Translations under genes and position numbers: made by a program | Assembly (NCBI GenBank): GCA_963730915.1 | Contig: CAVSTR010000004.1 | Coordinates: 609,114-673,113, forward strand | Direction: 5' to 3' | Length of the DNA stretch: 64,000 nt | DNA from: an uncultured Gemmatimonadales bacterium | GTDB taxonomy: Bacteria; Gemmatimonadota; Gemmatimonadetes; Gemmatimonadales; GWC2-71-9 | Notes under the pieces: generated by a model | The model's database searches: none | What the model saw: the letters and a program-made list of their open reading frames with translations, nothing else | What the model was told of the DNA's origin: nothing | Part shown: positions 2,672 to 63,896 of the stretch, in pieces | How the letters are laid out: the number at the start of each line of letters is the position of its first letter | Position numbering within the stretch: position 1 is the stretch's first letter

Positions 2672-3732
2672 GCCGTTCGTGCCTCCAACAGCTCCCCCAG
2701 ATCCTGTTTCGACGTCAATATTCCCGACCAGGGATCACCGTCCTGCTCGAGCAGGTCGGGAGCGGTGCGAAGGGTGAAATCGGTGGGATATATCGTCTCC
2801 AGCCGATCCCAGGTGACCGGCATCGAAACAGTTCCAAGAGGGTGCCGGCGCGGCGAAAATATTGCAGCCAGCGACTTGCCCCGGCTGTTCTGGTTGTAGT
2901 CGAAAAAGATCTTTCCGGTGCGGCGGTCGACCGACCACTCGAGCGTCACTTCACTCGGCCACAACTGCAGCGCGAACCGCCCAATGGTCTCGGCGATCCC
3001 CCGAGCGGCGTCGTAGTCGAACTTGCGGAGAATGGGAAGATAGAGGTGCAGGCCGGTTCGGCCGGACGTCTTTACGAAGATCTCGAGGCCCAGTCCCGCA
3101 AGAAGATCGCGCAAGCGAAGCGCAAGATCGCGGGTGCGGCTGAACGCCCGGCGGTGCAGCTCGGGCTCCTCTCCCTTGGCTTCACGACCCGAGTACTCGT
3201 ACGGGTCGAGATCGAAGACTACGAAGTCCGGAAAATTGAGGACCGACTTATCGAGAGTGGCGAGCGAGCCGGCGAACTTGCGGGTCTTCCCCCGGGTATC
3301 CGGCCCGGAATCGATACGCGAGAACCACGGGTGCAGCTCCAGCCCGGCCTGCTGCGACAGCCACAGCAGCGTTGCCAGGTTTTCACAGATGAGATAGTTG
3401 CCGTCGCCTTCGTTGTGGTTGGAGTAAATGGAGACGTTCCGCGCGAAGCCGGGTGGGTCTTCCCAGTGCTTCTGATAGAAGCTTTTTCCGGTCACGCCGT
3501 CAGGGTAGCGTGTAACGAACATTGGCCGTCCCGCAAGGTGCGGCAGCAGCCAGGGCGAAACCCGGGTGATGTACCGCAGCAGATCGCGCTTTGTCAGCGG
3601 GCGGTCGCGGCCATCACCGGGCCACAGCACTTTGTCCAGATTCGTCACCGAAAGGGCATAACCACCGACGCTCAGCTCGAACCGCGCCTTGCGCTGTTCC
3701 AGCTGGGCCAGCACTTCACCAACTTCGCTCAT
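2668..3732 (-). CDS. ligD: NHEJ polymerase/primase (stand-alone LigD polymerase domain, AEP family)
   Basis: 354 aa. VVFDLDP catalytic Asp motif, KTSGRTGLHLYLP, FFDYNQN. ATGA overlaps with ku (3729-3732) and ligase (2668-2671). Confidence 0.9.
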   Translation of the reverse strand: MSEVGEVLAQLEQRKARFELSVGGYALSVTNLDKVLWPGDGRDRPLTKRDLLRYITRVSPWLLPHLAGRPMFVTRYPDGVTGKSFYQKHWEDPPGFARNVSIYSNHNEGDGNYLICENLATLLWLSQQAGLELHPWFSRIDSGPDTRGKTRKFAGSLATLDKSVLNFPDFVVFDLDPYEYSGREAKGEEPELHRRAFSRTRDLALRLRDLLAGLGLEIFVKTSGRTGLHLYLPILRKFDYDAARGIAETIGRFALQLWPSEVTLEWSVDRRTGKIFFDYNQNSRGKSLAAIFSPRRHPLGTVSMPVTWDRLETIYPTDFTLRTAPDLLEQDGDPWSGILTSKQDLGELLEARTA

Positions 3733-20729: not shown

Positions 20730-22202
20730 GTGAGCTCCGGCAGACCTTCGGCCAGGAATGTCGACCTGAGCATTGGTTGCGTTACGCTCTTCCTCCTGCC
20801 GTTCGCTGGAGTTGGGCTCTTCACCGCGGCGATGGCGGTGCAGCGGCTCGCCGCCCACAACTGGACTGAAGCGCTCTTCTTCGCGCTGTTCGCCCTGACA
20901 TTCGGTGGTGTCGGAATTGGCGGCATAATCGCAGCGCTGGCTGGTCGCCGGACGCTGAAAGCGCAGGAACTGCTTCAGGCGAGCCACCCCGATACACCCT
21001 GGCTGTGGCGGCAGGATTGGGCCTCCGGGCACATTACCGATTCCAGCCGCAGCACCATGATCGGCACATGGCTGTTCGCCACCCTGTGGAACCTGATCGG
21101 CTTTCCTACAGGGTTTCTTTCGGTTCGCGCTGCCCTGAGAGAAGGCAGACCGGCCGCGTTCCTCGGGCTGCTATTTCCCATCGTAGGCGTTGGGCTGGTG
21201 GTCTGGGCCATCAGAACAACTCTCCGTCACTGGACATACGGTGTCTCCCGCCTCGAGCTTGCCACCGTGCCTGGCGTGGTTGGCAGGAGCCTCATCGGCA
21301 CGGTCCGCGCGCCTTCCATGATTCAGGCGGAGCAGGGGTTCGACCTGAGTTTGACATGTGTTCGCCGGATGACCCATGGAGGCGGGAAGCAGAGATCCAC
21401 ATCCGAAAGCATCCTGTGGCAGGACGTGCAGCGGGTTCCAGGCCGACCGTTCCGGGCGCCCGCCCGAATGGAAACGCACATCCCGGTAGCCTTCCGCATC
21501 TCGGCAGACGCGCCCTCCTCCGACGCCAATAACCCGGCAAATCGGGTAGTCTGGCAGCTCCAGGTCTCGGCCGACGTGCCCGGGGTGAACTACGAGTCAC
21601 GTTTCGACGTCCCCGTCTTTCGAACCCCAGCCAGCGAACAGCCGCTTTCACCCGAGGAGACTCGGCTCACTCAGGTTGCCGATATCACTGTATATCAGCA
21701 GCCCGCCGATTCTCGCATTCTGGTGAGTGCGACACGCCGGGGCACCGAGATTCTGTTTCCCGCCGCTCGCAACCTGGGCGTGGCGGTGAGCCTGACGGTG
21801 TTTCTCCTGATATGGCTGGCAGGGGTGGGTCTTCAGATCTACTTCGGCGCGCCGCTGATTTTTCCGATCGTCACCGGACTCTTCGCGCTGCTTCTTGTGG
21901 TCGTGGTATTGGACTTATGGCTCCAGGTATCACGCATCAGAGTGACTGCGGGGTCGGTTTCGTGGGCCACGGGATACATCGTCCCCGGGCGCGAGCACAT
22001 GATCCCAGCCTCGGAGATCGCCGAAGTCAGCGCCACAACCGGCATGCAGGCAGGCAACAGGGTGTACTACGATGTCGTGATCGTTCGGAAATTCGGAAAG
22101 AAGATCAAGGTGGGTCACTCGGTTCGCGACAAGCGCGAGGCCGATTGGCTGGCAGGTACGATTAAGAAGGCGTTAGGCCAGGAGCCGGGAGTTAGGAGCT
22201 AG
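20730..22202 (+). CDS. polytopic membrane protein, unknown function
   Basis: 490 aa. About 4 N-terminal TM helices, a ~170-aa soluble middle, 2 more TM helices (LGVAVSLTVFLLIWLAGVGL, LIFPIVTGLFALLLVVVVLDLWL), and a ~90-aa C-terminal domain. The last codons and the TAG stop lie inside the heptamer repeat arm. Confidence 0.6.
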   Translation: MSSGRPSARNVDLSIGCVTLFLLPFAGVGLFTAAMAVQRLAAHNWTEALFFALFALTFGGVGIGGIIAALAGRRTLKAQELLQASHPDTPWLWRQDWASGHITDSSRSTMIGTWLFATLWNLIGFPTGFLSVRAALREGRPAAFLGLLFPIVGVGLVVWAIRTTLRHWTYGVSRLELATVPGVVGRSLIGTVRAPSMIQAEQGFDLSLTCVRRMTHGGGKQRSTSESILWQDVQRVPGRPFRAPARMETHIPVAFRISADAPSSDANNPANRVVWQLQVSADVPGVNYESRFDVPVFRTPASEQPLSPEETRLTQVADITVYQQPADSRILVSATRRGTEILFPAARNLGVAVSLTVFLLIWLAGVGLQIYFGAPLIFPIVTGLFALLLVVVVLDLWLQVSRIRVTAGSVSWATGYIVPGREHMIPASEIAEVSATTGMQAGNRVYYDVVIVRKFGKKIKVGHSVRDKREADWLAGTIKKALGQEPGVRS

Positions 22203-22267
22203 GAGCTGGCAACTATTCAGCGCGTGCGGCTTGCACCTCCCAGCTCCCAGCTCCTGGCTCCTGACTC
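22178..22267. repeat. inverted arrays of heptamer [AG]GGAGC[TC] forming a hairpin between convergent genes
   Basis: Left arm 22178-22209 (CCAGGAGCCGGGAGTTAGGAGCTAGGAGCTGG). Right arm 22236-22267 (CCTCCCAGCTCCCAGCTCCTGGCTCCTGACTC) is its imperfect reverse complement. 26-nt spacer. Confidence 0.85.
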
Positions 22268-28264: not shown

Positions 28265-28357
28265 TGTCATCCTGAGCGAAGCGAAGAGCCTGCCCTGAGC
28301 CTGCCGAAGGGAGCCAAGCTCCCTCGGTATGGTCCCTTCGCTGCTTTCAGGGTGGCA
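28265..28357. repeat. REP-like palindromic element (TGTCATCCTGAGCGAAGCGAAG box pair)
   Basis: IR-L TGTCATCCTGAGCGAAGCGAAGAGCC (28265-28290). IR-R GGTCCCTTCGCTGCTTTCAGGGTGGCA (28331-28357) is its imperfect reverse complement. An inner palindrome GGGAGCCAAGCTCCC is also present. Located between the NrfD-like gene and fdhE. Confidence 0.8.
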
Positions 28358-30094: not shown

Positions 30095-30101
30095 GGGTTC
30101 C

Positions 30102-30203
30102 TGGCGGGGCAGCGGGGCAGCGGGGCTGCTAGTCAGCAACGGGTCACGACGGGCAGCGCTGGCGTCGACTGTCCCGCCGCCCCGCTGCCCCGCTGCCCCG
30201 CTG
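30102..30203. repeat. inverted octamer arrays (CAGCGGGG)3 / (CCCCGCTG)3 filling the fdhA-fdhB intercistronic region
   Basis: Left arm 30102-30125 TGGCGGGGCAGCGGGGCAGCGGGG. Right arm 30180-30203 CCCCGCTGCCCCGCTGCCCCGCTG. 54-nt spacer. By eye the arms pair at 22 of 24 positions. Confidence 0.85.
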
Positions 30204-30207
30204 ACCA

Positions 30208-34631: not shown

Positions 34632-34689
34632 CTACCGCCGTGCCGCCCATACCGCCTTACCGCCTTACCGCCCTAGTGACGAACGTCAC
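34632..34689. repeat. octamer array (TTACCGCC-type, 5 units) followed by palindrome GTGACGAACGTCAC
   Basis: CTACCGCC GTGCCGCC CATACCGCC TTACCGCC TTACCGCC (34632-34672), then GTGACGAACGTCAC (34676-34689). Located in a divergent promoter region. The unit matches the right arm of the 49.97 kb element. Confidence 0.8.
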
Positions 34690-40715: not shown

Positions 40716-43376
40716 ATGTCTCAACCCGCGATCACCGCGGAATTGCCTTCGCTCGATCCCACCGAGCTGGAGATCACCCGGATCCGTGCCCTTCGGGGCC
40801 CCAACTATTGGCGCCTTGCGCCGGTGGTTGCGTGTGATGTTCGGCTCGGTGGACTCGAGTCGCTCAGCACCGCCGATGTGCCGGGTTTTACCGAGCGCCT
40901 GCTCCATGCCATTCCGAGTCTTCGTGAGCACCCCTGCTCGCGGGGGCATCCGGGAGGATTCGTCGAACGCCTCACCGAAGGCACCGGCTGGCCTCATGTC
41001 CTGGAGCATGTAGCTCTCGAGCTTCAGAGCCTCGCCGGCACGGACGTCGATTTCGGCCGCGCCACCGAATCCGGTTCCCCCGGGCTGTGGTGGGTCATCG
41101 TGGAATACGATGAGGAGGAGCTCGGCGTCGCCAGTATTCGGCAGGGCACTACGCTGATGCGCGCCTGCCTGACCGGCGAGAGCATAGACGCCGCCGCCTT
41201 GATTCAGAGCCTTCGTGACCTGTGGCACGACGTACGACTCGGTCCGTCAACGGGAGTGATCGTAGAGGAAGCTCGTCGCCGTGGCATTCCGGTGCGCCGG
41301 CTCGGCACCGGCTCGATGGTCCAATTGGGACTCGGCCGCCACCTTCGCCGGATTCAGGCGACCACAACGGATACCACCAGTGTGATCGCCGCCGACATCG
41401 CGCAGAACAAGGATCTCACCAAGCGCATGCTCGAAGGCATCGGCCTCGCCGTTCCGGGTGGCGCTGTCGCTCGCGACGTCGAGCGGGCCGTGGAGATCGC
41501 CGGGGAAATCGGCTTTCCTGTCATTCTGAAGCCGCTGGCCGGCAATCAGGGCAGGGGGATCTCACCGCGACTCGACGACGAGCAGGCCGTTCGTGATGCC
41601 TGGACCCGCACCGCCGACGCATTTCCGGACATGGTGGTCGAACGGCATAGCGTAGGACGGGATCACCGGGTCCTGATCGTGAATGGCAAAGTGGTGGCGG
41701 TAGCCGAGCGGATTCCGGCTCATGTGATCGGGGATGGGCGGAACACCATTCACGAGCTCATTGCGGAAGCGAATGCCGATCCGCGCCGAGGCCGGGGGCA
41801 CGCGCGCATACTCACCGAAATTCCGGCCGATGATGCCACGAGCGAGTATCTGGCGCAGTCGGGGTTGACGCTCGACAGCGTGCCCGATGCAGGAGAGCGC
41901 GTGCTGCTCCGTTCCACCGCCAACCTCTCCACCGGCGGCACCTCCATCGATCGTACCGACGAGATCCATCCCGACAACGTGACTGCGTGCGAGATGGCGG
42001 CCGGGGTCATCGGCCTGGACATCGCCGGCCTCGACGTGCTCACCCCCGACATCTCACGGCCGTTCCATGAGAACGGAGCGGTGATCATCGAGGTGAATTC
42101 CGGGCCCGGCATCCGGATGCACACCCATCCGGCAGAAGGAAAGCCCCGGAACGTCGGCGGGGCCATTCTCGACATGCTGTATCCGCCCGGCGCGCGCGCA
42201 ACCATTCCGATCATCGCGGTCACCGGCACCAACGGCAAGACAACCACCACCCGGCTCGTCGCCCACTTGTTTCGGGCGACCGGTCTCACCGTCGGGTTCA
42301 CCACGACGGACGGCGTGTATCTCCAGAACCGCATGGTGGTGCAGGGAGACATGACCGGTCCCTTCGCGGCCAACGTCGTATTGTCCAATCCGACCGTGGA
42401 TCTCGCTGTACTCGAAACGGCTCGTGGCGGGCTGCTTCGGTCCGGGCTCGGCTTCATGGAGTGCGACGTCGGCATCGTCCTCAATGTCGCGGCCGATCAT
42501 CTCGGCATCGGCGGCATCGACACCATCGAGCAGCTTGCAAACGTGAAGAGCGTCATTCCTCAGGTGGTGAAGCGTCGCGGCCACGCGGTGCTCAACGCCG
42601 ATGATCCCCTGGTGTACGGAATGGCCGAGCGCACCCGGGGTGACGTCGTTCTGTTTTCGGCGCAGCCCGGGCGGTCGAACCCGCTGGTGGAGCAGCATGT
42701 CGAGGACGGCGGGACCGCGGCTACTATCGAAGAGGATGAGACCTTCGTGGTTCGGCGGGGTCGACTGTGTATCCCGATCGCTTCTGCTCGCGATGTGCCG
42801 CTCACGCTCGGCGGGGCGGCCCGCTTTCAGTATGGAAACATCCTGGCCGCCGTGGCCGCGGCCTACGTGCAGGGCATGCGCTACGAGGACATCCGCTCCG
42901 GCCTTCTCTCCTTCTTCCCTTCGCCGTCACTCACACCGGGTCGCCTGAATCTCCTTCGGGTGGGCAGGGGCCGGGTGCTGGTGGACTACGCCCACAATCC
43001 TGCCGCTGTCGAAGGCCTCATGGATATGGTCCGTCGCATGCCCGCGCGCCGGCGGATCGGTGTGGTCACCGCGCCGGGAGACCGCCGGGACGAGGACCTC
43101 CGGGCCGTGGGCCGCCGCTGCGCCGGGCTCGATCATGTGATCCTGAAAGAAGATGAGAACCGCAGGGGCAGGTCTCCCGGAGAGATCGCGCAGGTCATCC
43201 GTGAAGGGCTGCTGGAGTCGGGAATCTCAGCCGATCAGGTGACCACCGTCTACAGCGAGATGGATGCGGTCGAGCATGCGGTGAGGGAATTAGGCGATCA
43301 GGACCTGGTAGTGATTCTGGTCGACGATGTTCCCGCGGTGCTGGAGCAGCTCCGGCTGCATCGGGCGACGCCATAG
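40716..43376 (+). CDS. cphA: cyanophycin synthetase (full-length N-G-M)
   Basis: ORF 40695..43376 (TTG). ATG 40716 is preferred. ATP-grasp region (ILKPLAGNQGRGIS, ANLSTGGTSID, EVNSGPGIRMH). M domain (AVTGTNGKTTTTRL, VLVDYAHNPAA). Confidence 0.9.
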   Translation: MSQPAITAELPSLDPTELEITRIRALRGPNYWRLAPVVACDVRLGGLESLSTADVPGFTERLLHAIPSLREHPCSRGHPGGFVERLTEGTGWPHVLEHVALELQSLAGTDVDFGRATESGSPGLWWVIVEYDEEELGVASIRQGTTLMRACLTGESIDAAALIQSLRDLWHDVRLGPSTGVIVEEARRRGIPVRRLGTGSMVQLGLGRHLRRIQATTTDTTSVIAADIAQNKDLTKRMLEGIGLAVPGGAVARDVERAVEIAGEIGFPVILKPLAGNQGRGISPRLDDEQAVRDAWTRTADAFPDMVVERHSVGRDHRVLIVNGKVVAVAERIPAHVIGDGRNTIHELIAEANADPRRGRGHARILTEIPADDATSEYLAQSGLTLDSVPDAGERVLLRSTANLSTGGTSIDRTDEIHPDNVTACEMAAGVIGLDIAGLDVLTPDISRPFHENGAVIIEVNSGPGIRMHTHPAEGKPRNVGGAILDMLYPPGARATIPIIAVTGTNGKTTTTRLVAHLFRATGLTVGFTTTDGVYLQNRMVVQGDMTGPFAANVVLSNPTVDLAVLETARGGLLRSGLGFMECDVGIVLNVAADHLGIGGIDTIEQLANVKSVIPQVVKRRGHAVLNADDPLVYGMAERTRGDVVLFSAQPGRSNPLVEQHVEDGGTAATIEEDETFVVRRGRLCIPIASARDVPLTLGGAARFQYGNILAAVAAAYVQGMRYEDIRSGLLSFFPSPSLTPGRLNLLRVGRGRVLVDYAHNPAAVEGLMDMVRRMPARRRIGVVTAPGDRRDEDLRAVGRRCAGLDHVILKEDENRRGRSPGEIAQVIREGLLESGISADQVTTVYSEMDAVEHAVRELGDQDLVVILVDDVPAVLEQLRLHRATP

Positions 43377-43387
43377 CTGCCGGCGCT

Positions 43388-46180
43388 CTAGTCGTCCGTC
43401 TCCCCCCGAGCGATTCGGACGCCGCGAGTATCCCGCACGAACTCCCGTCGCTTGTCGTCCATCATCGTCGCAACTCCCGCCATCGATATCTCAGGCTCGG
43501 ATATTCTGGTACGCTCGGATGGCAGCGCGGCTGCGTCGGGCCGGAACTGAATGACCTGCTTCCAGCTCCGGGTTATGGCGTCCGCGAAAATGAGGACGAG
43601 GTCACCCGGCCGGCCTTCTCTGAGCGCGGCATCCACCGCCAGCGCCTCTTCTGGAATGATCGAGATACGCTCCGCTTCCACTCCATTCTCCAGCAGCGCC
43701 TTCTGCAGCAGCTTCGGCACCTCGTCCCCGCCCCGGCCCCGGAGCTGATCGTCTCGCCGGCAGATGAAGTAGTCGAAGTGTCCCGCCGCAATCCTTCCCA
43801 GCTCCGCGATATCCTCGTCCCGCCGGTCGCCTGGTGCCGACAATACGCAGACTCGCCGGCCGGTTATCTCCAGCCGGTCTACCAGCACGCACATCGCTTC
43901 GATCGCGGCCGGATTGTGCGCGTAGTCGAGGATGACCTGGAACGGATGCTCGTCGTAGATGTTCATCCGGCCCGGCGCCTGAAAGAACGTCGTATCGAAG
44001 GTCCGGAGCCCGTGCCGGATGTCTTCCAGCTTGAGCCCCATGCTGAACGCCATTGCCGCGGCGAACATCGCGTTCTGAACGTTGTGGAGCGCGCGGCCTT
44101 CCAGCGTAGCGGGTATGAGGTGGGTCCAGAGGAGGGGAATGTGGGCGCCGTGATCGTAGATGGTGATCATGTGCCCCTTGATTCCACTCTCCAGCACCAC
44201 GCCGCGTCCGCCCGCCTTGATGTGCTCGCCCACCAGCTCGTGAGTCGGGTCCATCGTGACATAGCAGAGATGGGTGGCTTCGGTATAGTCGGCCATCTTG
44301 AGACAGAGCGGATCGTCGGCGTTGAGAATCGCGGTATCCCGGGCGACCTCGATCACAATGCGCTTGACTTCGGCCAGCTGGTCCAGCGTCCCGATGCCGC
44401 GGAGGCCGAGGTGATCGGACTTGACGTTGAGCACCGCGCCAACATCGCAGTGGCGCACGCCCATGCCGGCGCGGAGTAGTCCGCCCCGGGCAATCTCGAG
44501 CACCGCCACATCCACCGACGGATCGCTGAGCACCATCCGGGTGGCGACCGGCCCCGTCATGTCGCCAGCCACCGTGCGCTGACCGTTGATGTACACGCCG
44601 TCGGTCGAGGTGAGGCCCACGTGGCGCCCTGCAAGCTTCTGAATGTGCGCCAGCATCCTGGCGGTGGTCGTCTTCCCGTTCGTTCCCGTCACCGCCGCGA
44701 TCGGTATCCGGCTCGGCGAGCCCGGTGGAAACAGCATGTCCATCACCGGCCCACCCACATCGCGCGGCCGGCCCTCGCTCGGGGCCATGTGCATGCGGAA
44801 TCCGGGCGCGGCATTCACCTCGCAGATGGCGCCTCCGACCTCCTTGTACGACTCGGTGACGTCGGTCGTCAGGAAGTCCACGCCGCCCACATCGAGGCCG
44901 ATCGCCTTCACCGCACGCACCGCCATCTCGATATTGTCGGGATGCACGTGATCCGTCATGTCGGTCGCGGTTCCGCCGGTCGAGAGATTGCCGGTGGACC
45001 GAAGGAAGACGCGCTCACCATCATCCGGAACGGTATCCCTGGTATATCCCTTCTTCGCCAGCATGGTCTCGGCCTGGTGATCGAACAGCAGGCGGGTCAG
45101 CACCTTCTCGTGCCCGACACCTCGGCGCGGATCCTGGTTCACCATGTCGACCAGCTGCTCGATCGTATGAATGCCGTCGCCCATCACGTGCCCCGGAAGC
45201 CGCAGTGCCACCGCCACCAGCTCGCCGTTGATCACCAGCATTCGGTGGTCCTCGCCGGTGATGAAGCTCTCGACGATGACGCTGCGGCTGTGCTCCCGCG
45301 CCACCTCGAAGGCCTCCGCCACCTGCTCCCCGCCCGTGAGATGGATCGAGATGCCCCGTCCATGGTTCGCGTTGTATGGCTTCACCACCACCGGATAGCC
45401 GATCCGCTCAGCCGCGGCGACGGCGTCCTGCGCCGTCTGAACCAGGCGCTGCTGCGGTACCGGCAGACCCAGGTTGCCCAGGATCCGGTTGGTCTCCTCC
45501 TTGTCGGAGGCAAGCTCGACGGCAATGTGGGAGGTCCGGCTGGTGACGGTGGCCTGGATCCGCTGCTGGTAGCGGCCATGGCCAAACTGGATCAGGCTCT
45601 GATCGTTGAGACGTATCCAGGGAATTCGCCGCTCCTCCGCGGCGCGCACCAGGGCCATGGTGCTCGGGCCAATCGCTCGGCGCTGCGCGAACCGGATGAA
45701 CTCGTCGCGCTCGGCGGCAAAGTCGAATCCCTGCGGAACCGAGCCCTCCGGCCGGAGCTCGGGCGGCAGCAACGAGTGAAGCAGGACCAGCGCCAGCCGG
45801 CCCGCCTCGACTCCCACCTCTTCCTGTTCGTATTGATAGACCACGTAGTAGTGGCCCCGCGGTCCGTGAGAGCGGGTCTTGCCGAAGGTGACCTTCTCTC
45901 CCGCCACGTTCTGAAGCTCGAGCGCCATGTGCTCCAGGATGTGGCCCATCCACGTCCCATCGCCTTCCGTGAGGCGGCGGATGAATCCACCCGGCTTGCC
46001 ATAGGAGCAGCCGTGATCCTTCAGGCCGGGCAGGGCCGCGATCAGGGGGTCGGTGAACCTCGGCCCCAGCTTCCCCGACGGCCAGTCTTCCAGTGGCCCG
46101 AGGTCGATGTGGAGCCGGATGACGGGAAAGTGAGCGTAGAGGCTGGGTCCGACGAATACGGCCTTGTCGAGTATGAGCAT
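43388..46180 (-). CDS. cphA: cyanophycin synthetase paralog (full-length N-G-M)
   Basis: 930 aa. VVKPYNANHGRGIS, GNLSTGGTATD, EVNAAPGFRMH, AVTGTNGKTTTARM, VILDYAHNPAA. Convergent with the other cphA, with an 11-bp gap between stops. Confidence 0.9.
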   Translation of the reverse strand: MLILDKAVFVGPSLYAHFPVIRLHIDLGPLEDWPSGKLGPRFTDPLIAALPGLKDHGCSYGKPGGFIRRLTEGDGTWMGHILEHMALELQNVAGEKVTFGKTRSHGPRGHYYVVYQYEQEEVGVEAGRLALVLLHSLLPPELRPEGSVPQGFDFAAERDEFIRFAQRRAIGPSTMALVRAAEERRIPWIRLNDQSLIQFGHGRYQQRIQATVTSRTSHIAVELASDKEETNRILGNLGLPVPQQRLVQTAQDAVAAAERIGYPVVVKPYNANHGRGISIHLTGGEQVAEAFEVAREHSRSVIVESFITGEDHRMLVINGELVAVALRLPGHVMGDGIHTIEQLVDMVNQDPRRGVGHEKVLTRLLFDHQAETMLAKKGYTRDTVPDDGERVFLRSTGNLSTGGTATDMTDHVHPDNIEMAVRAVKAIGLDVGGVDFLTTDVTESYKEVGGAICEVNAAPGFRMHMAPSEGRPRDVGGPVMDMLFPPGSPSRIPIAAVTGTNGKTTTARMLAHIQKLAGRHVGLTSTDGVYINGQRTVAGDMTGPVATRMVLSDPSVDVAVLEIARGGLLRAGMGVRHCDVGAVLNVKSDHLGLRGIGTLDQLAEVKRIVIEVARDTAILNADDPLCLKMADYTEATHLCYVTMDPTHELVGEHIKAGGRGVVLESGIKGHMITIYDHGAHIPLLWTHLIPATLEGRALHNVQNAMFAAAMAFSMGLKLEDIRHGLRTFDTTFFQAPGRMNIYDEHPFQVILDYAHNPAAIEAMCVLVDRLEITGRRVCVLSAPGDRRDEDIAELGRIAAGHFDYFICRRDDQLRGRGGDEVPKLLQKALLENGVEAERISIIPEEALAVDAALREGRPGDLVLIFADAITRSWKQVIQFRPDAAALPSERTRISEPEISMAGVATMMDDKRREFVRDTRGVRIARGETDD

Positions 46181-46226
46181 TGATGGTTCTTCCGAGGATC
46201 AGATTACCGAGCATTGTCATCCTGCA

Positions 46227-46338
46227 GCGCCGCTGCCCCGCTGCCCCGCTGCCCCGCTGCCCCGCTGCCCCGCTGCCCCGCTGCCCCGCTTACCCGCTGC
46301 CCCGCTGCCCCGCTGCCCCGCTTACCTGCTCGCCCGCT
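46227..46338. repeat. tandem octamer array (GCCCCGCT, about 14 units, 10 perfect) between cphB and the cphA paralog
   Basis: Perfect units start at 46235, 46243, 46251, 46259, 46267, 46275, 46283, 46299, 46307 and 46315. Variants are GCGCCGCT, TACCCGCT, TACCTGCT and CGCCCGCT. Preceded by a TGTCATCCTG box at 46215. The minus-strand transcript would carry (AGCGGGGC)n. Confidence 0.9.
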
Positions 46339-47185
46339 TCGCCGTCTTGTCCCCTGTTTCGGTGCCTGCCCGAATGGCCAAAGCGGGCGCCGCCGCGGCT
46401 ACCCGGGTGTGGAGATTGAAGGTTGAGCCGTGATCCAGGATGTGCAACTTCAGCCCGATCAGACATATGGCGTCGTTCTTCCGCACCCGCGCCATGGACG
46501 AGAACTCGATGCCCGACGGGTCGACGATCGTGAGCGCTCCACTGCCGACCACTTCGAGAGTCTCATCGGGTGCAATGAACGCCGCCGTGTTCTCGTCCAG
46601 TCCGATCCCGATGGCGAACGGGTTGTAGGCCAGTGCCGTGAGCAGCCGGCCGAGGCGGTCGCGCTGGCGGAAGTGCTGGTCGATGATGACCCGGTTCGTG
46701 AGCCCCAGCCCCGGTGCCAGCGTGACGATCCTTGCTCGCGGGGACGCGCCTTCCTTTCCGAAGGCGATCATGTGCTCGCACAGGAACGCCGCTCCGGCCG
46801 ATGTCCCCGCGATGTGCATCCCCTCGACGTTTCGCTGACGCATCGCCTTGGCCACCGCCGTCCCACCGATCATGGTGCTCAGCCGAAGCTGGTTGCCGCC
46901 GGTGAGAAACACGCCGTCCACCTTGTGCAGGACCTCGAGCCACTCGGGCCGTTCGCAGTCGGCGCGGCTGGCGATGGGCAGGGCCTTCGCGTCGCCGACA
47001 CCGAGGCTCTTGAACAGCTCCTCATAGCGCCCGCCGGTATCGGTGAGCATGGACGCGGTCGGGATGATGGCGATGCGGCCTTTCGCACCCCCACAGAGCG
47101 TGGCGAAGCGTCGCAGAATGTGGATGTCTCCGATTTTCTCCTCGGCGCCGCCCACGGGGATGATGTAGCCTCTGGATTTCGCCAC
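46322..47185 (-). CDS. cphB: cyanophycinase (S51 peptidase)
   Basis: 287 aa. YIIPVGGAEEK, nucleophile context IAGTSAGAAFL, VIIDQHFRQRDRLGRL. The last codons overlap the octamer array. Confidence 0.9.
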   Translation of the reverse strand: MAKSRGYIIPVGGAEEKIGDIHILRRFATLCGGAKGRIAIIPTASMLTDTGGRYEELFKSLGVGDAKALPIASRADCERPEWLEVLHKVDGVFLTGGNQLRLSTMIGGTAVAKAMRQRNVEGMHIAGTSAGAAFLCEHMIAFGKEGASPRARIVTLAPGLGLTNRVIIDQHFRQRDRLGRLLTALAYNPFAIGIGLDENTAAFIAPDETLEVVGSGALTIVDPSGIEFSSMARVRKNDAICLIGLKLHILDHGSTFNLHTRVAAAAPALAIRAGTETGDKTAKRASR

Positions 47186-47212
47186 CCTGCTCCTCCGAGT
47201 TTCTGCCTTAAA

Positions 47213-48388
47213 CTATGCCCGTTTGACTTGTTCGAAGCCGCCCGTAATAACCGCACGACCATCTCGCACGTGCCACCGGCCGCGTGCCATTACATCCTCG
47301 ACTGCACCATCAGACCCCAGCACCACCAGATCGGCATCTGCCCCCGTCTCGAGGTGCCCTTTGCGCGGCAGGAGCAGAAGCCGAGCCGGATTGGAGGTAA
47401 AGGCGGGTAGCACTCGCTCCAGCGGCTGACCGCGGGCCAGCAGCTCCTTCAACGTCTCGGCCATCGAAGAGGGCCGGCCCACGTCCAGCGCAACCACCCG
47501 CCCGTCGTCGTCGAACTCCGGGAAACACCCGCCGCCGTCCGAGCTCACCGTCACTCGAGTTGGAGGCAGACCCTTGTCGTAGTAGCGAAGGAGCGCGTCC
47601 GCCGCCGACCATGCGTCTTCGCCGTCCTCGACGGGAAACGCCGTGATGTCGATGGTACAGCCCTCCTGCGTGAGCTCCATCGCTTCCTCGAACAGCCGCT
47701 TCTTCCGGTTGACGTGCGTCGGGTTGAACACGGCCGCCGGCACCTCGGTCCGCTCGATCGCCTCCCGGACCAGCTCCAGGCCGCGCTCTCCATCTCCGAC
47801 GTGCAGGTGCACGATACCGGCCTTGCCCGCCATCAGTCCGCCCACATGCGCGTCGCCCGCCACGCGGACCAGCTCATCGAACGTCGGCTGTGACGATCGA
47901 TGGTCGCTGATCGCCAGCTCGCCCACACCGAGGATGAGATCGATCAGCACGATGTCCCCCCGCACGCTGCCGGTGACCGTCACGGGAGGCACGTGATAGC
48001 CGCCGGTATAGCAGTAGGCGCTGAGACCTTCCGCTATCAGGCCGCGCGCGGTCGTCACCAGTTCGGCCGTCGTGCGCACCGTGTCGTCGGTGCCGAGCAG
48101 ACCGATCACCGTCGTAACTCCGCCGGTGGTGAGACGGCTCAGACCCAGCGGTGGAACCCGCGTCTCCGGTCCGGCTTCCCCTCCGCCACCAGTCAGGTGG
48201 ACGTGACAGTCTACCAGCCCCGGAATGACTCGGCGTCCCCCGAGATCGTACTCCTCGACACCGTGTGCCGCGGTGAAGGACGGGGCGGTCTCACCCACCC
48301 AGACGATCGTCTCGCCTGCCACGAGCAGGTGTCTGTGACCCTGTGATTGCGGAGCATACAGGTCGGCGTTCCGCAGAAGCTGAAGCAA
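47213..48388 (-). CDS. iadA: isoaspartyl (beta-aspartyl) dipeptidase
   Basis: Long ORF 47213..49003 trimmed to in-frame TTG 48388 (LQLLRNADLYAP...). GLVDCHVHLTGGGGEAGPETR parallels the E. coli IadA HVHLIGGGGEAG motif. The upstream part of the ORF is a translation of the heptamer array. Confidence 0.8.
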   Translation of the reverse strand: MLQLLRNADLYAPQSQGHRHLLVAGETIVWVGETAPSFTAAHGVEEYDLGGRRVIPGLVDCHVHLTGGGGEAGPETRVPPLGLSRLTTGGVTTVIGLLGTDDTVRTTAELVTTARGLIAEGLSAYCYTGGYHVPPVTVTGSVRGDIVLIDLILGVGELAISDHRSSQPTFDELVRVAGDAHVGGLMAGKAGIVHLHVGDGERGLELVREAIERTEVPAAVFNPTHVNRKKRLFEEAMELTQEGCTIDITAFPVEDGEDAWSAADALLRYYDKGLPPTRVTVSSDGGGCFPEFDDDGRVVALDVGRPSSMAETLKELLARGQPLERVLPAFTSNPARLLLLPRKGHLETGADADLVVLGSDGAVEDVMARGRWHVRDGRAVITGGFEQVKRA

Positions 48389-48407
48389 GAGTATCCGGGG
48401 GTTATTA

Positions 48408-48500
48408 GTCTGGCGTCTAGTCGTCTGGCGTCTGGCGTCTAGCGTCTGGCGTCTCGGCGTCTGGCGTCTGGCGTCTGGCGTCTGGCGTCTGGCGTCTGGC
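48408..48500. repeat. tandem heptamer array (GTCTGGC, 13 units) in the iadA / egtB-like divergent region
   Basis: 10 perfect GTCTGGC units plus variants GTCTAGTC, GTCTAGC and GTCTCGGC. The last six are perfect and contiguous (48459-48500). A TGTCACCCCGAGC box follows at 48559-48571. Confidence 0.9.
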
Positions 48501-48590
48501 CACCAACTTACCCCGGCGCGGTGCCCGCTGCTATCGTAGAGGATGGCCGGGTGATCCCTGTCACCCCGAGCTACCAGAACCGGCGGAAGA

Positions 48591-49804
48591 TTGAGCACAC
48601 ATCCCGACCAAGGCCGCATGCCCACCCTGCAATCGAGCACTCTCTCGCGTAAACGGCTGGCCGAATTGCTGGCCGAGGCACGAGCGCGCACCGTTCTCCT
48701 GGTGAGCCCCGTGTCCGAAGTGGGCTTGCACGCTCGGCCCGACGAGGCTGTTGGGTCGGTGTTGCAGGAGCTGGGGCAGATCCTCCGATTCGAGCTCGAG
48801 TGGCTGGCACAGGAGCCCGAGGGCGGCGGCGCCGAGTCGCTGCCGAGCTTCGAGTCGTACGACGAGTGGTTCGACGCCATGCTGGAGATTCGGGAGCGAT
48901 CCCTGGAGCAGCTCGAGTCGCTCCACGACCTGAGCTCCTCTCCGAGTATGGAAGATCGCTGCCGGCTGGTTCTGGACCACGAGTACCGTCGCGACGAGGC
49001 CATTCTCGAGACGCTGCAGCTCCAGCCGGATTATCGCGCGCCTCGGCGTGTCCTCCTGCCTCGCGGCCGCCGTCTCGCCGATCCCGGCATCATGGCGCGC
49101 TTTCCCGGCGGAACCGATCTCGATCGGAGCGAGCTGCCGAGTCACGGGTGTGGCCGGACGAGGCGCCGGTCGACAAGGTCCACCTGGAGCCGTTCTGGAT
49201 CGATGTCATGCCGGTGACGAACGGCGACTTCGTCACCTTCATGGCCGCCGGCGGATACGTGAGCGCCGACTACTGGTCCGATGAAGGATGGGAGTGGGTC
49301 CGCAGCAATGGGGTGCAGACCCCGCGGCACTGGTTCTGGGATGAAGGAGCGTGGTGGACCCGCTGGATGGACAGACCCATGCTGCTCGACCTCACCTGCC
49401 CGGTGAGCTGCGTGTCGCGCTACGAGGCCGAAGCCTTCGCCAGGTTCGTGGGGAAGAGACTGCCGACCGAGCTCGAGTGGGAAGCGGCCGCGACATGGGA
49501 TCCCGAGAGTCAGGACCGGCGGCACTATCCCTGGGGCAGCATGGCGCCATCGCTCAACGTCGCCAATCTCGATCAGCTCGCGTTCGAGACCGCCGAGGTC
49601 GGTGCCTTTCCCGGCAACCTCTCGCCGGTCGGCTGTTATGGAATGATCGGTGATCTCTGGGAATGGACCGCGAGCCCGACGGGTGTCCTCCGTGGCGGCT
49701 CCTGGGCGACCCGTCCCGGCGCCGCGCGAGTCACGGCCACGAAGTGCGCGTCACCATCTGCTCGCCACGTCTTCAGTGGGTTTCGTTGTGCGCATGATGG
49801 GTGA
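48591..49804 (+). pseudogene. degenerate EgtB/FGE-sulfatase paralog (frameshifted, Fe ligands lost, internal deletion)
   Basis: The N-terminal DinB-like part is in ORF 48591..49217 and the FGE-like part in ORF 48800..49804. The frames switch near 49117-49130. LGQILRFEL and HEYRRDE replace LGHIAHFEE and HEYQHNE of egtB. About 26 aa (DFHGYPGFQSFPYPEYSEAFFGSDYK) are missing between WEWT and LRGGSW. Confidence 0.7.
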
Positions 49805-49991
49805 AGGCGGTAGGGCGGTATGGCGGTAGGTAGTGCGGCTGGGAATGGTTGAGTGATTGTCATCCCGAACGTAGTGAGGGATCGCTCCATCTGACGTCCG
49901 CACGACCATGGCCGCTCAGACGCCTCGTTAAGCGATCCCTCGCTTTGCTCGGGATGACATCCTTTTCCTAGCTTACCGCCTTCCCGCCTAC
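49804..49991. repeat. composite palindromic element: octamer arms + inverted TGTCATCCCGA REP boxes, spanning a whole convergent intergenic region
   Basis: Left arm 49804-49838 (AAGGCGGT AGGGCGGT ATGGCGGT AGG...). IR-L 49858-49886 TGTCATCCCGAACGTAGTGAGGGATCGCT. IR-R 49931-49959 AGCGATCCCTCGCTTTGCTCGGGATGACA. Right arm 49972-49991 (CTTACCGCC TTCCCGCC TAC). The arms touch the stop codons of both flanking genes. Confidence 0.85.
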
Positions 49992-52561: not shown

Positions 52562-52598
52562 CTCCGCCCGTCCGCCTCTCCGCCTGTCCGCCTGTCCG
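52562..52598. repeat. octamer array ([CG]TCCGCC[CT], about 4.5 units) upstream of leuS
   Basis: CTCCGCCC GTCCGCCT CTCCGCCT GTCCGCCT GTCCG, in the MCP/leuS divergent region. Confidence 0.8.
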
Positions 52599-53444
52599 TA
52601 GCAGTAACACCGCAGTGCCAATAGATTTACGCTTCCTTGAAACCACGAATATCTCCGGAACGACCCCGGCCGCCGGCGGGACGAACCAGCACCATGAAGA
52701 CGACCGAGACGCGAGTGAAGCAGAATCCCATATCTACCGACGTGGTGCCCTACCGCCCGGAGACCATCGAGCCCAAGTGGCAGGCGCGATGGGCCGAGCG
52801 GCACACCAACGAGCCCGACCTCGATCGCGCGGTCCAGCCCTTCTACAACCTCATGATGTTCCCCTACCCCTCGGCCGAGGGGCTGCACGTGGGGAACATG
52901 TTCGCCTTCACCGGCAGCGACGTGTATGGCCGGTTCAAGCGGCTCCAGGGCTATCGACGTGTTCGAGCCGATCGGCTACGACGCGTTCGGCATCCACAGT
53001 GAGAACTACGCCATCAAGGTGGGCATCAATCCCGCCGAGCTGATTCCGCGGAACATCACCAACTTCCGGCGCCAGCTCAAAAGCATCGGCGGCATGTTCG
53101 ACTGGCGTCACGAGCTCTCGACCACGGATCCGAAGTATTACAAGTGGACCCAGTGGATCTTTCTGCAGCTGCTGAAGGCGGGCAAGGCGTACAAGAAGGC
53201 GGCCGCGGTCAACTGGTGTCCCAAGGACCAGACCGTGCTGGCGAACGAGCAGGTCATCGACGGCCGCTGCGAGCGCTGCGGCACCACCGTCGAGCAGCGG
53301 ACGCTGGAGCAGTGGTTCTTCCGCATCACTGAGTATGCCGACCGCCTGTTGGCGAATCTGGACGACAAGTCGAAGATGGACTGGTCCGAGAGCACCACCC
53401 TGGCGCAGCGGAATTGGTTGGGGCGTTCGAGGCGCGGAGTATTT

Positions 53445-53567
53445 GGAGGGTCGGAGGGTCGGAGGGACGGAGGGACGGAGGATGTCACCCTCGGCGTAGC
53501 GAAGAGGCAGCGGGGCAGCGTAGGAGAAGATGTCACCCTGACCCCTCGCGAAGCGAGGGGGAGGGGC
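53445..53567. repeat. octamer array GGAGGG[TA]C (4.5 units) plus two TGTCACCC REP-like boxes, inside leuS
   Basis: Array 53445-53482. Boxes start at 53483 (TGTCACCCTCGGCGTAGCGAAGAGGC) and 53531 (TGTCACCCTGACCCCTCGCGAAGCGAGGGG). AGCGGGGCAGCG lies between them. It translates as GGSEGRRDGGCHPRRSEEAAGQRRRRCHPDPSRSEGEG. Confidence 0.85.
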
Positions 53568-53950
53568 CGAAACCCCGCGCGCCAGAGATCAAAGTCTTTA
53601 CGACGAGGCCCGACACCGTCTTCGGCGCCACCTTCATGGTCCTCGCTCCCGAGCACCCGCTGGTCGACTCGTTCACCACTCCGAAGCAGAAGGCGGAAGT
53701 GAACGCGTATCGCCAGGCGGCGACGTCGAAGGACCTGGTCTCCCGCAAGGTGGGCGACCGGGAGAAGACCGGCGTCTTCACCGGCGGCCACGCGATCAAT
53801 CCGGCCACCGGCAAGCCGATCCCGGTCTGGATCGCCGACTACGTGCTGATGGAGTACGGCACCGGTGCCATCATGGCGGTGCCCGGCCACGACCAGCGCG
53901 ACTTCGAGTTCGCTCAGAACGCTTCGAGTCTGCCGATTCTCAGAGTAGTC

Positions 53951-53995
53951 TGTCACCCTGAGCGGAGCGAAGGAGCCGAAGCTCCGCTTGAAGCC
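53951..53995. repeat. REP-like box inside leuS (TGTCACCCTGAGCGGAGCGAAGGAGCCGAAGCTCCGC)
   Basis: Hairpin GCGGAGC / GCTCCGC. Translated in frame as VCHPERSEGAEAPL, in the variable linker after HDQRDFEFA. Confidence 0.75.
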
Positions 53996-54807
53996 GCATA
54001 CGTAGACAACGACGACGGAGTCCTCTGCAACTCCGGCCAGTTCGACGGCCTGAAAGTCCCCGAAGCCAAGCGCGCCATCACCGCCTGGCTCGCCGAGCGC
54101 GGGGCGGGGAAGGCCGTGGTCAACTACCGCCTGCACGACTGGTGCATCAGCCGCCAGCGGTACTGGGGCCCGCCGATCCCCATCATCTACTGCGACGAGC
54201 ACGGCGCCGTCCCGGTACCCGAGAAGGATCTCCCGGTCGAGCTGCCGGTGATCGACGACTTCCAGCCGGACGACAGCGGCATCTCGCCGCTGGCCCGGCA
54301 CGAGAGCTGGTACCACGTCCCATGTCCCGTCTGCGGCAAGCGCAGCCGGCGCGAGACCGACGTCAGCGACACCTTCCTCGACTCGGCCTGGTACTACCTG
54401 CGCTATCCCAGCACCGACTTCGACGACCGTCCCTTCGATCAGGGGCGGACCCGGCGGTGGCTGCCGGTCACCACCTACATCGGCGGCAACGAGCACGCGG
54501 TGCTGCACCTGCTCTATTCGCGCTTCATCGCGATGGTGCTGCAGGAGCTCGGCATGGTCCACTTCGACGAGCCGTTCCGGAAGTTCCGGGCGCACGGGCA
54601 CATCGTGAAGGATGGGTCCAAGATGTCGAAGAGCCACGGCAACGTGGTCGTGCCCGACGAGTACATCGCGCGCTGGGGCGCCGACACCTTCCGGATGTAT
54701 CTCATGTTCCTGGGCCCGTTCCAGGAGGGCGGCGACTTCCGTGACGAGGGCATCGCCGGCCCGCGCCGGTTCCTGGAGAAGGTCTGGAATCTCGTGAGCG
54801 ACGCCCA

Positions 54808-54935
54808 GCAGTCATTGCGAGAGCCTGCCCCGAGCAATCAAACGAGGGGCCGCGAAGCGACCGAAGCAATTCCGCGGGCTGGCACGGAGCCGCAGTCATT
54901 GCGAGCCCCCGACGCGGGCGCGGCAATCCCCCGGC
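54808..54935. repeat. pair of GCAGTCATTGCGAG...GCAATC REP-like boxes inside leuS
   Basis: GCAGTCATTGCGAG at 54808 and 54892, each followed by ...GCAATC. In frame they add about 30 aa (QQSLREPAPSNQTRGREATEAIPRAGTEPQSLRAPDAGAAIP) relative to Thermus-type LeuRS. Confidence 0.75.
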
Positions 54936-55421
54936 AGCCGCAGGTCGACCTCTCGCACGCCGTCCAGACCAAGCGCCATCAGACGGTGAAGAAGGTGACA
55001 GAAGGTCTCGAAGACCTGCGCTACAACACCTCCATCGCGGCGCTGATGGAACTGGTGAACACCCTTCGGGCGGAGAACAGCTGGAATCAGCAGCTGATCG
55101 AGGAGCTGATCGTCATGCTCGCTCCCTTCGCCCCCCACTTCGCCGAGGAGAACTGGGAGCGGCTGGGGCACGACGGCTCGATCTTCGATGCGCGCTGGCC
55201 GGGCTGGGACGAGCGGCTGACGGTGGAGGACTCGGTCGAGATCGCGGTGCAGGTGAACGGGAAGACCCGGTCGAAGGTGTCGGTGCCGCGCGATGCAGAG
55301 CAGGGTGCTGTGGTGGCAGCCGCGCAGGAGGATGCGGCGGTGCGCCGGTTTACCGAGGGCAAGGAGGTTGGGAAAGTGGTGTACGTGCCGAATCGGCTGC
55401 TGAATTTGGTGGTCGGCTAGG

Positions 55422-60356: not shown

Positions 60357-63525
<3,169 letters not shown>

Positions 63526-63585
63526 TCCTGCCTCTGTTCGTGGAATGGGCGGAATATGCCGGTGAGCGCGGGGGTTAGCCAGTAT

Positions 63586-63813
63586 GAGCTGGGAGCTGGG
63601 AGCTAGGAGCTAGGAGCAACGTTGTCATCCTGAGCCCTTCGACTTGCTCAGGGTAAACTCCGCGAAGGTCTCTCCGAGAGGTAGATCCGGGCTCGGACTT
63701 GGACGAGAGGTACCGGTGGGTTCTGCGGAGGCACTGCGATCCCAATCACAGAACCAGATTCCCGCGTTTCGAGCTCCCAGCTCCCAGCTCCCGGCTCCTA
63801 GCTCCCAGCTCCC
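63586..63813. repeat. composite palindromic element: heptamer GGAGCT[GA] arms flanking a TGTCATCCTGAGC-containing core
   Basis: Left arm 63586-63617 (GAGCTGG GAGCTGG GAGCTAG GAGCTAG GAGC). Box TGTCATCCTGAGC at 63623. Right arm 63771-63813 (GAGCTCC CAGCTCC CAGCTCC CGGCTCC TAGCTCC CAGCTCC C) is the reverse complement of the same heptamer family used at 22.2 kb. Confidence 0.85.
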
Positions 63814-63896
63814 ACGCGGGTGATCCATACCACGGTCCTTCCTACTGGTGCGCACAACCATTCGAGTGCACCGGCGCTTACACACCAGGAGGATCT

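Follow-up and report, generated by a model that had tools for sequence, protein, structure and literature searches.

A G-rich octamer array at the cyanophycinase stop codon of an uncultured Gemmatimonadales bacterium, a probable member of a class of stop-codon-abutting tandem repeats

Between the genes for cyanophycinase (cphB) and cyanophycin synthetase (cphA) of an uncultured Gemmatimonadales bacterium lies a tandem array of octamers that begins at the cphB stop codon and carries its G-rich strand on the sense strand of both genes. The array is part of contig CAVSTR010000004.1 (GenBank assembly GCA_963730915.1) and was analysed within a stretch of 64,000 nucleotides, positions 609,114 to 673,113 of the forward strand, which is called the window below and to which all coordinates refer. 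The two genes, the array and its parts are arranged as follows.

43388-46180, minus strand: cphA, cyanophycin synthetase, with Cyanophycin_syn N-terminal, ATP-grasp and Mur-ligase domains, downstream of the array
46181-46226, minus strand: unique spacer past the array, with GGAAG at 46189-46193, 8 nt before the cphA ATG
46227-46338, minus strand: octamer array of 14 units in an 8-nt register, sense strand (GCGGGGCA)n
46235-46290, minus strand: block of seven perfect units, with seven GGGG runs and CAGC loops on the sense strand
46291-46298, minus strand: internal variant unit TACCCGCT, of GCGGGTAA type on the sense strand, holding a second TAA and the same as the unit of the related locus L006
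46299-46322, minus strand: block of three perfect units, directly 3' of the cphB stop codon
46322-46324, minus strand: cphB stop codon TAA, in register, inside the variant unit TACCTGCT (46323-46330)
46322-47185, minus strand: cphB, cyanophycinase (Peptidase_S51), whose last five codons overlap the variant units at 46323-46338

Read on the plus strand from 46227, the units are GCGCCGCT, seven copies of GCCCCGCT, TACCCGCT, three further copies of GCCCCGCT, TACCTGCT and CGCCCGCT. Ten are perfect (46235-46290 and 46299-46322) and four are variants (at 46227, 46291, 46323 and 46331), which agrees with the count given in an earlier note on this DNA, and Tandem Repeats Finder (TRF) places the array at 46230-46322 with period 8, 11.6 copies, 95% matches and a score of 172. 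The same note had claimed at least ten GGGG runs on the minus strand; there are ten CCCC runs on the plus strand, in blocks of seven and three with one GGG-only unit (sense strand) between them, and every one of the 14 units has GGGG or GGG on the sense strand. Its assignment of the G-rich strand as the sense strand of cphB and cphA is confirmed by the strands on which the open reading frames (ORFs) lie and by their domains. The array is real and far above chance, since the 16-mer (GCCCCGCT)2, when up to two mismatches are allowed, is present 16 times in the window, whereas shuffles give an expectation of 0.24; all 16 occurrences are within the cphB array or at 30103-30202.

On the sense strand, cphB ends with ...AAG CGG GCG AGC AGG TAA, followed by three GCGGGGCA units, one GCGGGTAA, seven more GCGGGGCA units and GCGGCGCT, and then by 46 unique nucleotides, including the GGAAG, up to the cphA ATG. 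The onset of the array coincides with the last codons and the stop of cphB, and about 95 nt of the 141-nt cphB-cphA spacer are occupied by it. The second TAA in the internal TACCCGCT unit, and the match of this unit to that of L006, suggest that a block holding the stop-containing unit was duplicated. The earlier note also claimed that cphB takes its last codons and its stop from the array, which is right in so far as the TAA and the last five codons sit in two variant units, but relatives without an array conserve the same C-terminal tail at the protein level. A 15-residue C-terminal extension of CphB (EGGGEGNKAAKRGSR-like; 46325-46369 in the window) is found only in the closest clade (the window, L001, L002, L004, L006 and L172), and its G-rich codons resemble the GGAAGGCG-type array past the stop in the L008 spacer; the extension may be an old array that became coding when the stop codon moved.

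Several familiar types of repeat have a different build. CRISPR arrays have 24-48-nt repeats with unique spacers, and here the units are 8 nt long and stand head to tail. In place of the layout of a phase-variable contingency locus, whose repeat lies in a reading frame or between promoter elements and switches a gene on or off, the perfect units lie beyond the stop, and only two variant units overlap the cphB tail. There is also no sign of an intrinsic terminator: no terminator-like site was found within the cphB-cphA spacer, no T run follows the array, and the sense RNA is less Watson-Crick-structured than shuffles (see below). The array may nevertheless influence cphA.

The relatives of CphB with 82-88% identity, which are cited here by locus labels (L001 and so on), all belong to Gemmatimonadales metagenome-assembled genomes (MAGs) and keep the order cphB then cphA. 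Copy number at this orthologous site turns over between zero and at least 14: the window has 14 units, L003 at least eight (a lower bound, as its contig stops inside the array, at 3279-3344), L172 six, L015 about four variant units, L006 2.4, L001 1.6, and L002 and L004 none. In L172 the six GCGGGGCA units are followed by just 31 nt up to the cphA ATG, and the array of L006 is (GCGGGTAA)x2.4. L002 ends with ...AAGCGGGTAA and a 4-nt spacer and therefore has a single proto-unit (GCGGGTAA) carrying the stop codon; the internal GCGGGTAA unit of the window's array fits the series from L002 to L006. A metagenome scan for strain-level length variants, using a window-specific flank together with the array boundary, returned 0 matches.

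The array itself could in principle be the product of an assembler that had expanded or mis-joined a short repeat. Arrays of this kind do break short-read assemblies, as seen from L003 and from 18 of the 125 listed GCGGGGCA arrays (L081-L200) that lie at contig ends, so that copy numbers in MAGs are lower bounds; moreover, the closest relative, L001, has just 1.6 units, and an array within leuS, described further below, has a length that differs by exactly one unit from what an open reading frame would need. However, the array has unique flanks and internal variant units, independent assemblies have six and at least eight units at the same site, and contigs of 0.5-3.7 Mb bear arrays of 8-22 units, which leaves an assembly artefact hardly credible.

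In more distant Gemmatimonadales, the same spacer has arrays of different units that begin directly after the stop. Among these units are GGCGGTCG, GGGACGGC (10.8 copies), GCGGGCAG (6.9 copies), GGCGGAAC (10 copies), AGGACGGAA, CACAGAGG, CTGAAGG (11 copies), CGATAGGG and, once, CCCCTTT. Many of these arrays are followed, 30-100 nt downstream, by an array of the reverse complement, with which they can form a long hairpin. Two loci labelled as other phyla, L020 (Actinomycetota) and L037 (Bacillota), have cphB genes 79-84% identical to Gemmatimonadales genes, and L020 also has arrays of the Gemmatimonadales type; the labels may be wrong or the contigs mis-binned.

The arrays at cphB belong to a much wider population. 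A census made with TRF and a codon-model gene caller trained on these loci gave, in 709 kb of Gemmatimonadales DNA, 62 arrays of period 7 and 57 of period 8, and 91 of these 119 are intergenic, though non-coding DNA makes up just about 10% of the total. Arrays of period 6 and period 9 are mostly coding, and 162 kb from other phyla held four arrays of period 7 or 8. Among spacers of at least 40 nt, an array is present in 46 of 169 in the close clade versus 1 of 50 outside the order. Thirty-nine of 95 intergenic arrays begin within 12 nt of the stop codon of the gene that reads into them, whereas a start codon is as near as that to just three of the 95. G exceeds C on the sense strand of 37 of these 39. 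On average, the sense strand of stop-abutting arrays has 50% G, 16% C and 72% purine. This strand bias is a property of the arrays and not of the background, because array-free spacers are not G-rich in the first 30 nt past the stop (33% G, 36% C); G-richness as a mere matter of local composition after stop codons was thereby ruled out.

The stop codon itself is frequently found in register within the first variant unit, for instance in GGCGGTAA before (GGCGGTCG)n, in CAGGTGA and TAGGGGT, or at 63586 in the window (GAGCTGG GAGCTGG GAGCTAG), and genes that precede an array end in TAG or TAA more often than others do (27 of 45, versus 37% of all genes). A gradual fade of the periodicity into the coding region was considered and ruled out: in-register units upstream of the TRF boundary are at the background identity of about 0.3. 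Between unrelated sites, 25 pairs of identical units were found, against 2.8 in composition-preserving shuffles. Besides the cphB array, members of the class with other units in the window include the following.

22180-22254, plus strand: class member (AGGAGCT), straddling the stop of the ORF at 20730-22202, with an inverted partner (CTCCCAG) at 22237-22254
49806-49830, plus strand: class member (GGCGGTAG)x3, starting 2 nt past the stop of a plus-strand gene
63586-63617, plus strand: class member (GAGCTGG/GAGCTAG), straddling the stop of the ORF at 63016-63606

The partner of the last of these is (AGCTCCC)x6 at 63772-63814, and (GGCGGTAG)x3 has a degenerate inverted arm at about 49960-49987, adjoining the stop of a convergent gene. 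Two octamer arrays of the window, (TACCGCCT)x4.9 at 34633-34672 and (TCCGCCTG)x4.5 at 52563-52598, are placed between apparently divergent genes, upstream of starts; either they are exceptions to the stop-codon rule, or the gene calls there are wrong.

The octamer of the cphB array is also used elsewhere in the window.

30095-30207, minus strand: two-armed form of the octamer in the 113-nt spacer between a molybdopterin oxidoreductase gene and the gene of its 4Fe-4S subunit
53509-53520, plus strand: isolated 1.5-unit copy AGCGGGGCAGCG (12-mer) in a repeat-rich insertion in leuS, with 0 expected in shuffles

At the first of these sites the stop codon is followed by (GCGGGGCA)x3, about 44 nt of loop, (GCCCCGCT)x3, AGGAA and ATG, and the predicted RNA hairpin has -83 kcal/mol. 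The inverted arms that the earlier note had placed in what it labelled the fdhA-fdhB spacer (30102-30203) are thus present, at 30103-30126 and 30171-30202, and its 1.5 copies in leuS were found at 53509-53520. Its wider claim that the unit is reused across loci holds as well, on account of 30103-30202, 53509-53520 and at least 120 metagenome contigs. Within the source genome the octamer was searched for in the 64-kb window; in the metagenomes, a scan for four octamer units matched those contigs at a GC content of 0.43-0.75 (most 0.56-0.75). The matches listed contain 125 GCGGGGCA arrays of 3-14 units, and among those of at least four units 46 abut a stop codon with the G-rich strand as sense and five with the C-rich strand as sense. 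A C-rich partner arm is downstream in 11 of the listed arrays and upstream in 0. The downstream flanks are diverse; often, within 10-20 nt past (GCGGGGCA)n, there is a terminator-like hairpin with a T run or a repetitive extragenic palindrome (REP)-like hairpin, GTCAYCCCGGCGAAAGCCGGGRTCC (L091, L097, L099, L195 and others; L093, L110, L137, L163). In such cases (GCGGGGCA)n is enclosed by the stop codon on one side and the usual 3' hairpin on the other. The loops between two arms of the same unit have no common sequence.

This dispersal raises the question of mobility. More specifically, the array could be what remains of a dispersed palindromic element with octamer arms, or a single arm of one. 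The element would be similar to a REP doublet forming a hairpin (REPIN) or a miniature inverted-repeat transposable element (MITE), and its arrays would be propagated sequence-specifically by an enzyme of its own and would not have arisen locally. Identical units at unrelated loci and in unrelated genomes would be explained in this way, as would the fact that two-armed copies always have the G-arm first (partners 11 downstream, 0 upstream, among the matches listed), that arms often terminate in TAG...CTA and that other small palindromic repeats are found within loops. However, the two-armed copies have unrelated loops and are thus not copies of one element, their downstream flanks are diverse, about 90% of the listed GCGGGGCA arrays are one-armed, and at least one array unit, TCGGAGGG, is clearly local in origin, from S-E-G codons of leuS. 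No transposase or REP-associated tyrosine transposase (RAYT) was seen nearby, though none was searched for. A mobile palindromic element was rejected as the main explanation on the unrelated loops and the diverse downstream flanks, the cphB array having a single arm, and little credence is given to it overall.

A different palindromic element, GT[CG]AYCCYGA[GC]CG.AGCGARGG..., is dispersed through the same DNA, with 65 matches in the loci and the window, 53 of them non-coding. In the window it is found at 28266, 48560, 49948 (minus strand), 53532, 53952 (inside the leuS coding region) and 63624, and it also occurs in L006, L020, L021, L026, L027, L135, L147, L168 and L184, often within the loop between two array arms. 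A half-copy (a 'gcaggatgac' remnant) adjoins the cphB array at 46211-46226. A strict link of the arrays to this GTCAYCCYGAGCG palindromic element was ruled out, since only 13 of the 96 arrays lie 200 nt or less from a copy.

The leuS gene (52926-55420) is broken up: its two ORFs overlap but are read in different frames. Its insertion of about 190 nt (about 53395-53590), between the conserved motifs NWLGRS and EIKVFTTRPDT, contains a (TCGGAGGG/GGAGGGAC)x4.6 array, whose unit corresponds to the gene's own S-E-G codons, and GTCACCC-type palindromic elements. Deletion of exactly one 8-nt unit from the array restores a single LeuRS ORF of 829 amino acids. The split could mean that the repeat was miscounted, that leuS is a pseudogene here or that the repeat switches the frame of an essential gene.

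The cphB array could form G-quadruplexes (G4s), and the earlier note had described it as an ideal (G4N4)n pattern. As a pattern this is supported both by motif search and by folding. The canonical motif (at least four runs of three or more G, loops of 1-7 nt) matches by regular expression at 46236-46319 on the minus strand, the longest of just seven canonical G4 motifs in the window. In ViennaRNA the sense RNA has -56 kcal/mol without G4s, weaker than shuffles (-69.8 +/- 5.5), and -81 kcal/mol with two G4s, and the antisense RNA of the array has zero gain from allowing G4s. Given how little Watson-Crick structure the sense RNA has, and a gain of about 25 kcal/mol when G4s are allowed, their formation is credible, and on these computed energies G4 folding of the sense RNA is plausible.

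A dedicated regulator would go further. The (G4N4)10 tract would then fold either within the cphBA transcript, as an RNA G4, or on the non-template strand, as a G4 of DNA or a hybrid one, and this structure would have been selected to control the cyanophycinase:synthetase ratio. Such a regulator would be in keeping with the perfect motif, the longest in the window, with the hairpin-poor sense RNA and its energy gain, with the G-rich strand being the sense strand and with similar heptamer repeats that form K+-dependent G4s in vitro (PMC4692102). However, other species have different units at the same site (GGCGGTCG, GGGACGGC, CACAGAGG, CTGAAGG, AGGACGGAA, CCCCTTT), including units without G4 capacity, and only 12 of 45 stop-abutting arrays have a canonical motif (29 of 45 have four G2 runs), with 17 of the 45 having neither a G4 motif nor a partner arm. 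It was also considered that G4-capable arrays might dispense with a hairpin partner, but there is no association (4/8 versus 16/17 in a 2x2 table). Relatives with 85-88% identical CphB have 0-1.6 units, and the same unit makes an ordinary hairpin at 30095-30207. Since this site holds just 0 to 2 units in close relatives, expression of cphBA does not depend on a specific G4. Therefore, a dedicated G4 regulator is considered unlikely, and the G4 as an explanation of the element, as distinct from the G4 pattern, is not supported: the array belongs to a class of mostly non-G4 units, and G4 capacity is not the defining property of that class.

For the hairpin-forming members of the class, to which the evidence for an RNA-level role refers, some comparisons of structure can be made. 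Spacers of the CACAGAGG type in seven orthologues keep a 28-pair stem with 2 compensatory pairs, and these stems have many G-U pairs and fewer A-C mismatches. Of 31 cphB-cphA spacers that were folded in both orientations, 21 have the more stable RNA on the sense side (p=0.013), a difference that is confounded by G-U pairing in any G-rich strand, and the folding energies thus lean only slightly towards a role at the RNA level. Alternatively, the arrays might serve as a periodic RNA-binding platform, on which purine motifs every 7-8 nt past the stop would be bound by the anti-Shine-Dalgarno tail of the ribosome or by an S1-, Csp- or CsrA-type protein, affecting ribosome recycling, re-initiation or mRNA fate. 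The sense strand with 72% purine and 50% G, the Shine-Dalgarno-like units GGAGGGAC, AGGAGCT, AAGGTGA and CAGGTGA and the position tied to the stop codon would fit such a platform, and a protein-binding role has been proposed for TAACTGA heptamer repeats (PMC4679880). But the unit sequences are too diverse for one binder, and arrays are also found past the last gene of convergent pairs, which makes a common platform very unlikely.

Upstream of cphB, the surroundings of the array include one more gene and one more long repeat.

47213-48388, minus strand: amidohydrolase (isoaspartyl-dipeptidase-like), upstream of cphB on the same strand
48408-48500, minus strand: (GCCAGAC)x13 on the sense strand, on the strand of the cph genes and just upstream of the amidohydrolase start

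The (GCCAGAC)x13 repeat, the second long array beside the cph cluster, is neither G-rich nor G4-capable. On the other side of the octamer array, the cphA-proximal part of the spacer at 46181-46226 is conserved with L006. A scan of 43000-49400 for sigma-70 consensus promoters gave zero sites anywhere and is therefore uninformative for this phylum. Judging mainly by the short gaps of 31 nt (L172) and 46 nt (window) between array and cphA, cphB and cphA are probably co-transcribed through the array. Rfam had no match at gathering scores in the whole window and none at E<=1 in 46100-46450, and an exact-protein lookup of CphB gave no record.

Among known repeats, REPs, bacterial interspersed mosaic elements (BIMEs) and intercistronic stem-loops as in E. 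coli malE-malF stabilise the mRNA segment upstream of them. The Gemmatimonadales class resembles them in its location after stop codons and between operon genes and in the long hairpins of its two-armed members, and a barrier to 3'-exonucleases has been proposed for them as for the present array. However, REPs are imperfect palindromes of 20-40 nt and not tandem 7-8-mers, and this array has no partner arm. Another parallel is given by the short tandemly repeated repetitive (STRR) heptanucleotides of the heterocystous cyanobacteria Calothrix and Nostoc, which likewise are short tandem units that are not a multiple of three, are found at many intergenic sites and form lineage-specific families. 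Stop-codon adjacency and strand bias are, to our knowledge, not in their original description, and the array differs from STRR sequences, which are heptamers with other units and are known only from cyanobacteria, in its 8-nt unit and its occurrence in Gemmatimonadales.

The closest match in the literature is the set of repeats described by Rehm et al. (2015, PLoS One; PMC4692102), GGGAATC in Xanthomonas and GGGGAYT in Nostoc. Xanthomonas has 70-75 inverted pairs per genome, in Nostoc pecE and pecF are separated by a 26-unit array, orthologous sites differ in copy number and sequence, and there is a preference for four units; G4s were formed by these repeats in vitro, most of the repeats are transcribed, and no function was found (PMC4692102). 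As in the present array, the units are tandem and G-rich with one G-tract (at least three G) each, they are strongly intergenic, and their number varies at orthologous sites, here from 0 to at least 14. The Gemmatimonadales class as a whole also shares with them the stop-codon position, the frequent inverted pairs with stem-loop potential and intercistronic examples. The array was assigned to this G-rich type because all sequence-level features match apart from unit length (8 nt and not 7), unit sequence and phylum (Gemmatimonadota). There are further differences: one family dominates in those genomes, whereas here many unit families, mostly without G4 capacity, coexist in one genome. For the published repeats, transcription and the formation of G4s were demonstrated, whereas here G4s are predicted in silico and transcription appears likely from gene spacing.

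Two other surveys are more distantly related. As summarised in PMC4692102, Mrazek et al. (2007) found long simple-sequence repeats (SSRs) with units of 5-11 nt and an excess of heptamers in large, high-GC genomes of non-pathogens. The present class has in common with these, going by that summary, the high-GC free-living hosts, the excess of 7-8-nt units and the proposal of polymerase slippage; the summary presents a statistical census without a stop-codon rule, a strand rule or Gemmatimonadota data. The direct repeats of the heptamer TAACTGA that occur in Beggiatoaceae, Cyanobacteria and Bacteroidetes (MacGregor 2015; PMC4679880) are also dispersed and intergenic and, like the present class, probably act on the transcript if at all. 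In contrast to the G-rich arrays at stops, they are AT-rich, consist of a single unit in 2-6 copies and are located upstream of starts. A literature search on the repeat sequence itself found no papers, and one on Gemmatimonadota repeats found nothing relevant.

Taken with these parallels, the array is probably best explained, although with considerable room for doubt, as a long 8-nt simple-sequence repeat belonging to a Gemmatimonadales-wide class that abuts stop codons and has its G- or purine-rich strand on the sense strand of the gene. The array would have grown by replication slippage from an octamer overlapping the stop, and the proposed series leads from the single proto-unit GCGGGTAA (L002) through 2.4 copies (L006) to six, eight or more and finally 14 units, the later ones being GCGGGGCA. 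Units at the cphB stop would be gained and lost rapidly, and the array would persist because this place and orientation are tolerated or mildly useful. Probably transcribed within the cphB-cphA intercistronic RNA, the G-rich stretch might act as a structured or Rho-resistant block just past the stop, like the hairpin-forming members of the class; the block could shield the upstream message from 3'-exonucleases or, alternatively, dampen read-through or coupling into cphA, with the repeat number setting the strength of either effect. A neutral, tolerated repeat is almost as likely as such a structured-block effect.

Some observations weigh against this preferred explanation. Identical units at unrelated loci and genomes (the 25 pairs versus 2.8 in shuffles, and the 120 or more contigs) are unexplained by local slippage alone, and the strand bias and stop adjacency suggest selection or a directed mechanism. 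The presumed co-transcription, for its part, is argued from short spacers and from a sigma-70 consensus scan that is uninformative. Lastly, since close relatives have no array, any function of it must be dispensable.

In a wider context, the window adds a third, unrelated phylum to those with stop-codon-adjoining repeats that are G-rich on the sense strand and have optional inverted partners, as in Xanthomonas and Nostoc. New at the level of the class are the very tight link to the stop codon and the coexistence of many families of units, of which most lack G4 capacity; because so many families coexist, explanations based on structure (G4 or hairpin) can be separated from those based on position. 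A bolder proposal is that post-stop arrays are a functional, lineage-wide signal in Gemmatimonadales, an idea that would extend to Xanthomonas and Nostoc, with selection keeping the G-rich sense strand and the stop position. This appears unlikely at present, but if it were true, folded or G-rich RNA behind the terminating ribosome would block Rho loading or 3'-exonucleases, or else the array would set how much transcription or translation passes into the next gene, and identical units at unrelated genes would reflect a sequence-specific factor. Repeat number would then be a fast-evolving dial, in this case for the ratio of breakdown by cphB to synthesis by cphA. The array is a hypervariable element placed between the cyanophycin-degrading and cyanophycin-synthesising enzymes of one operon, and it could tune their ratio.

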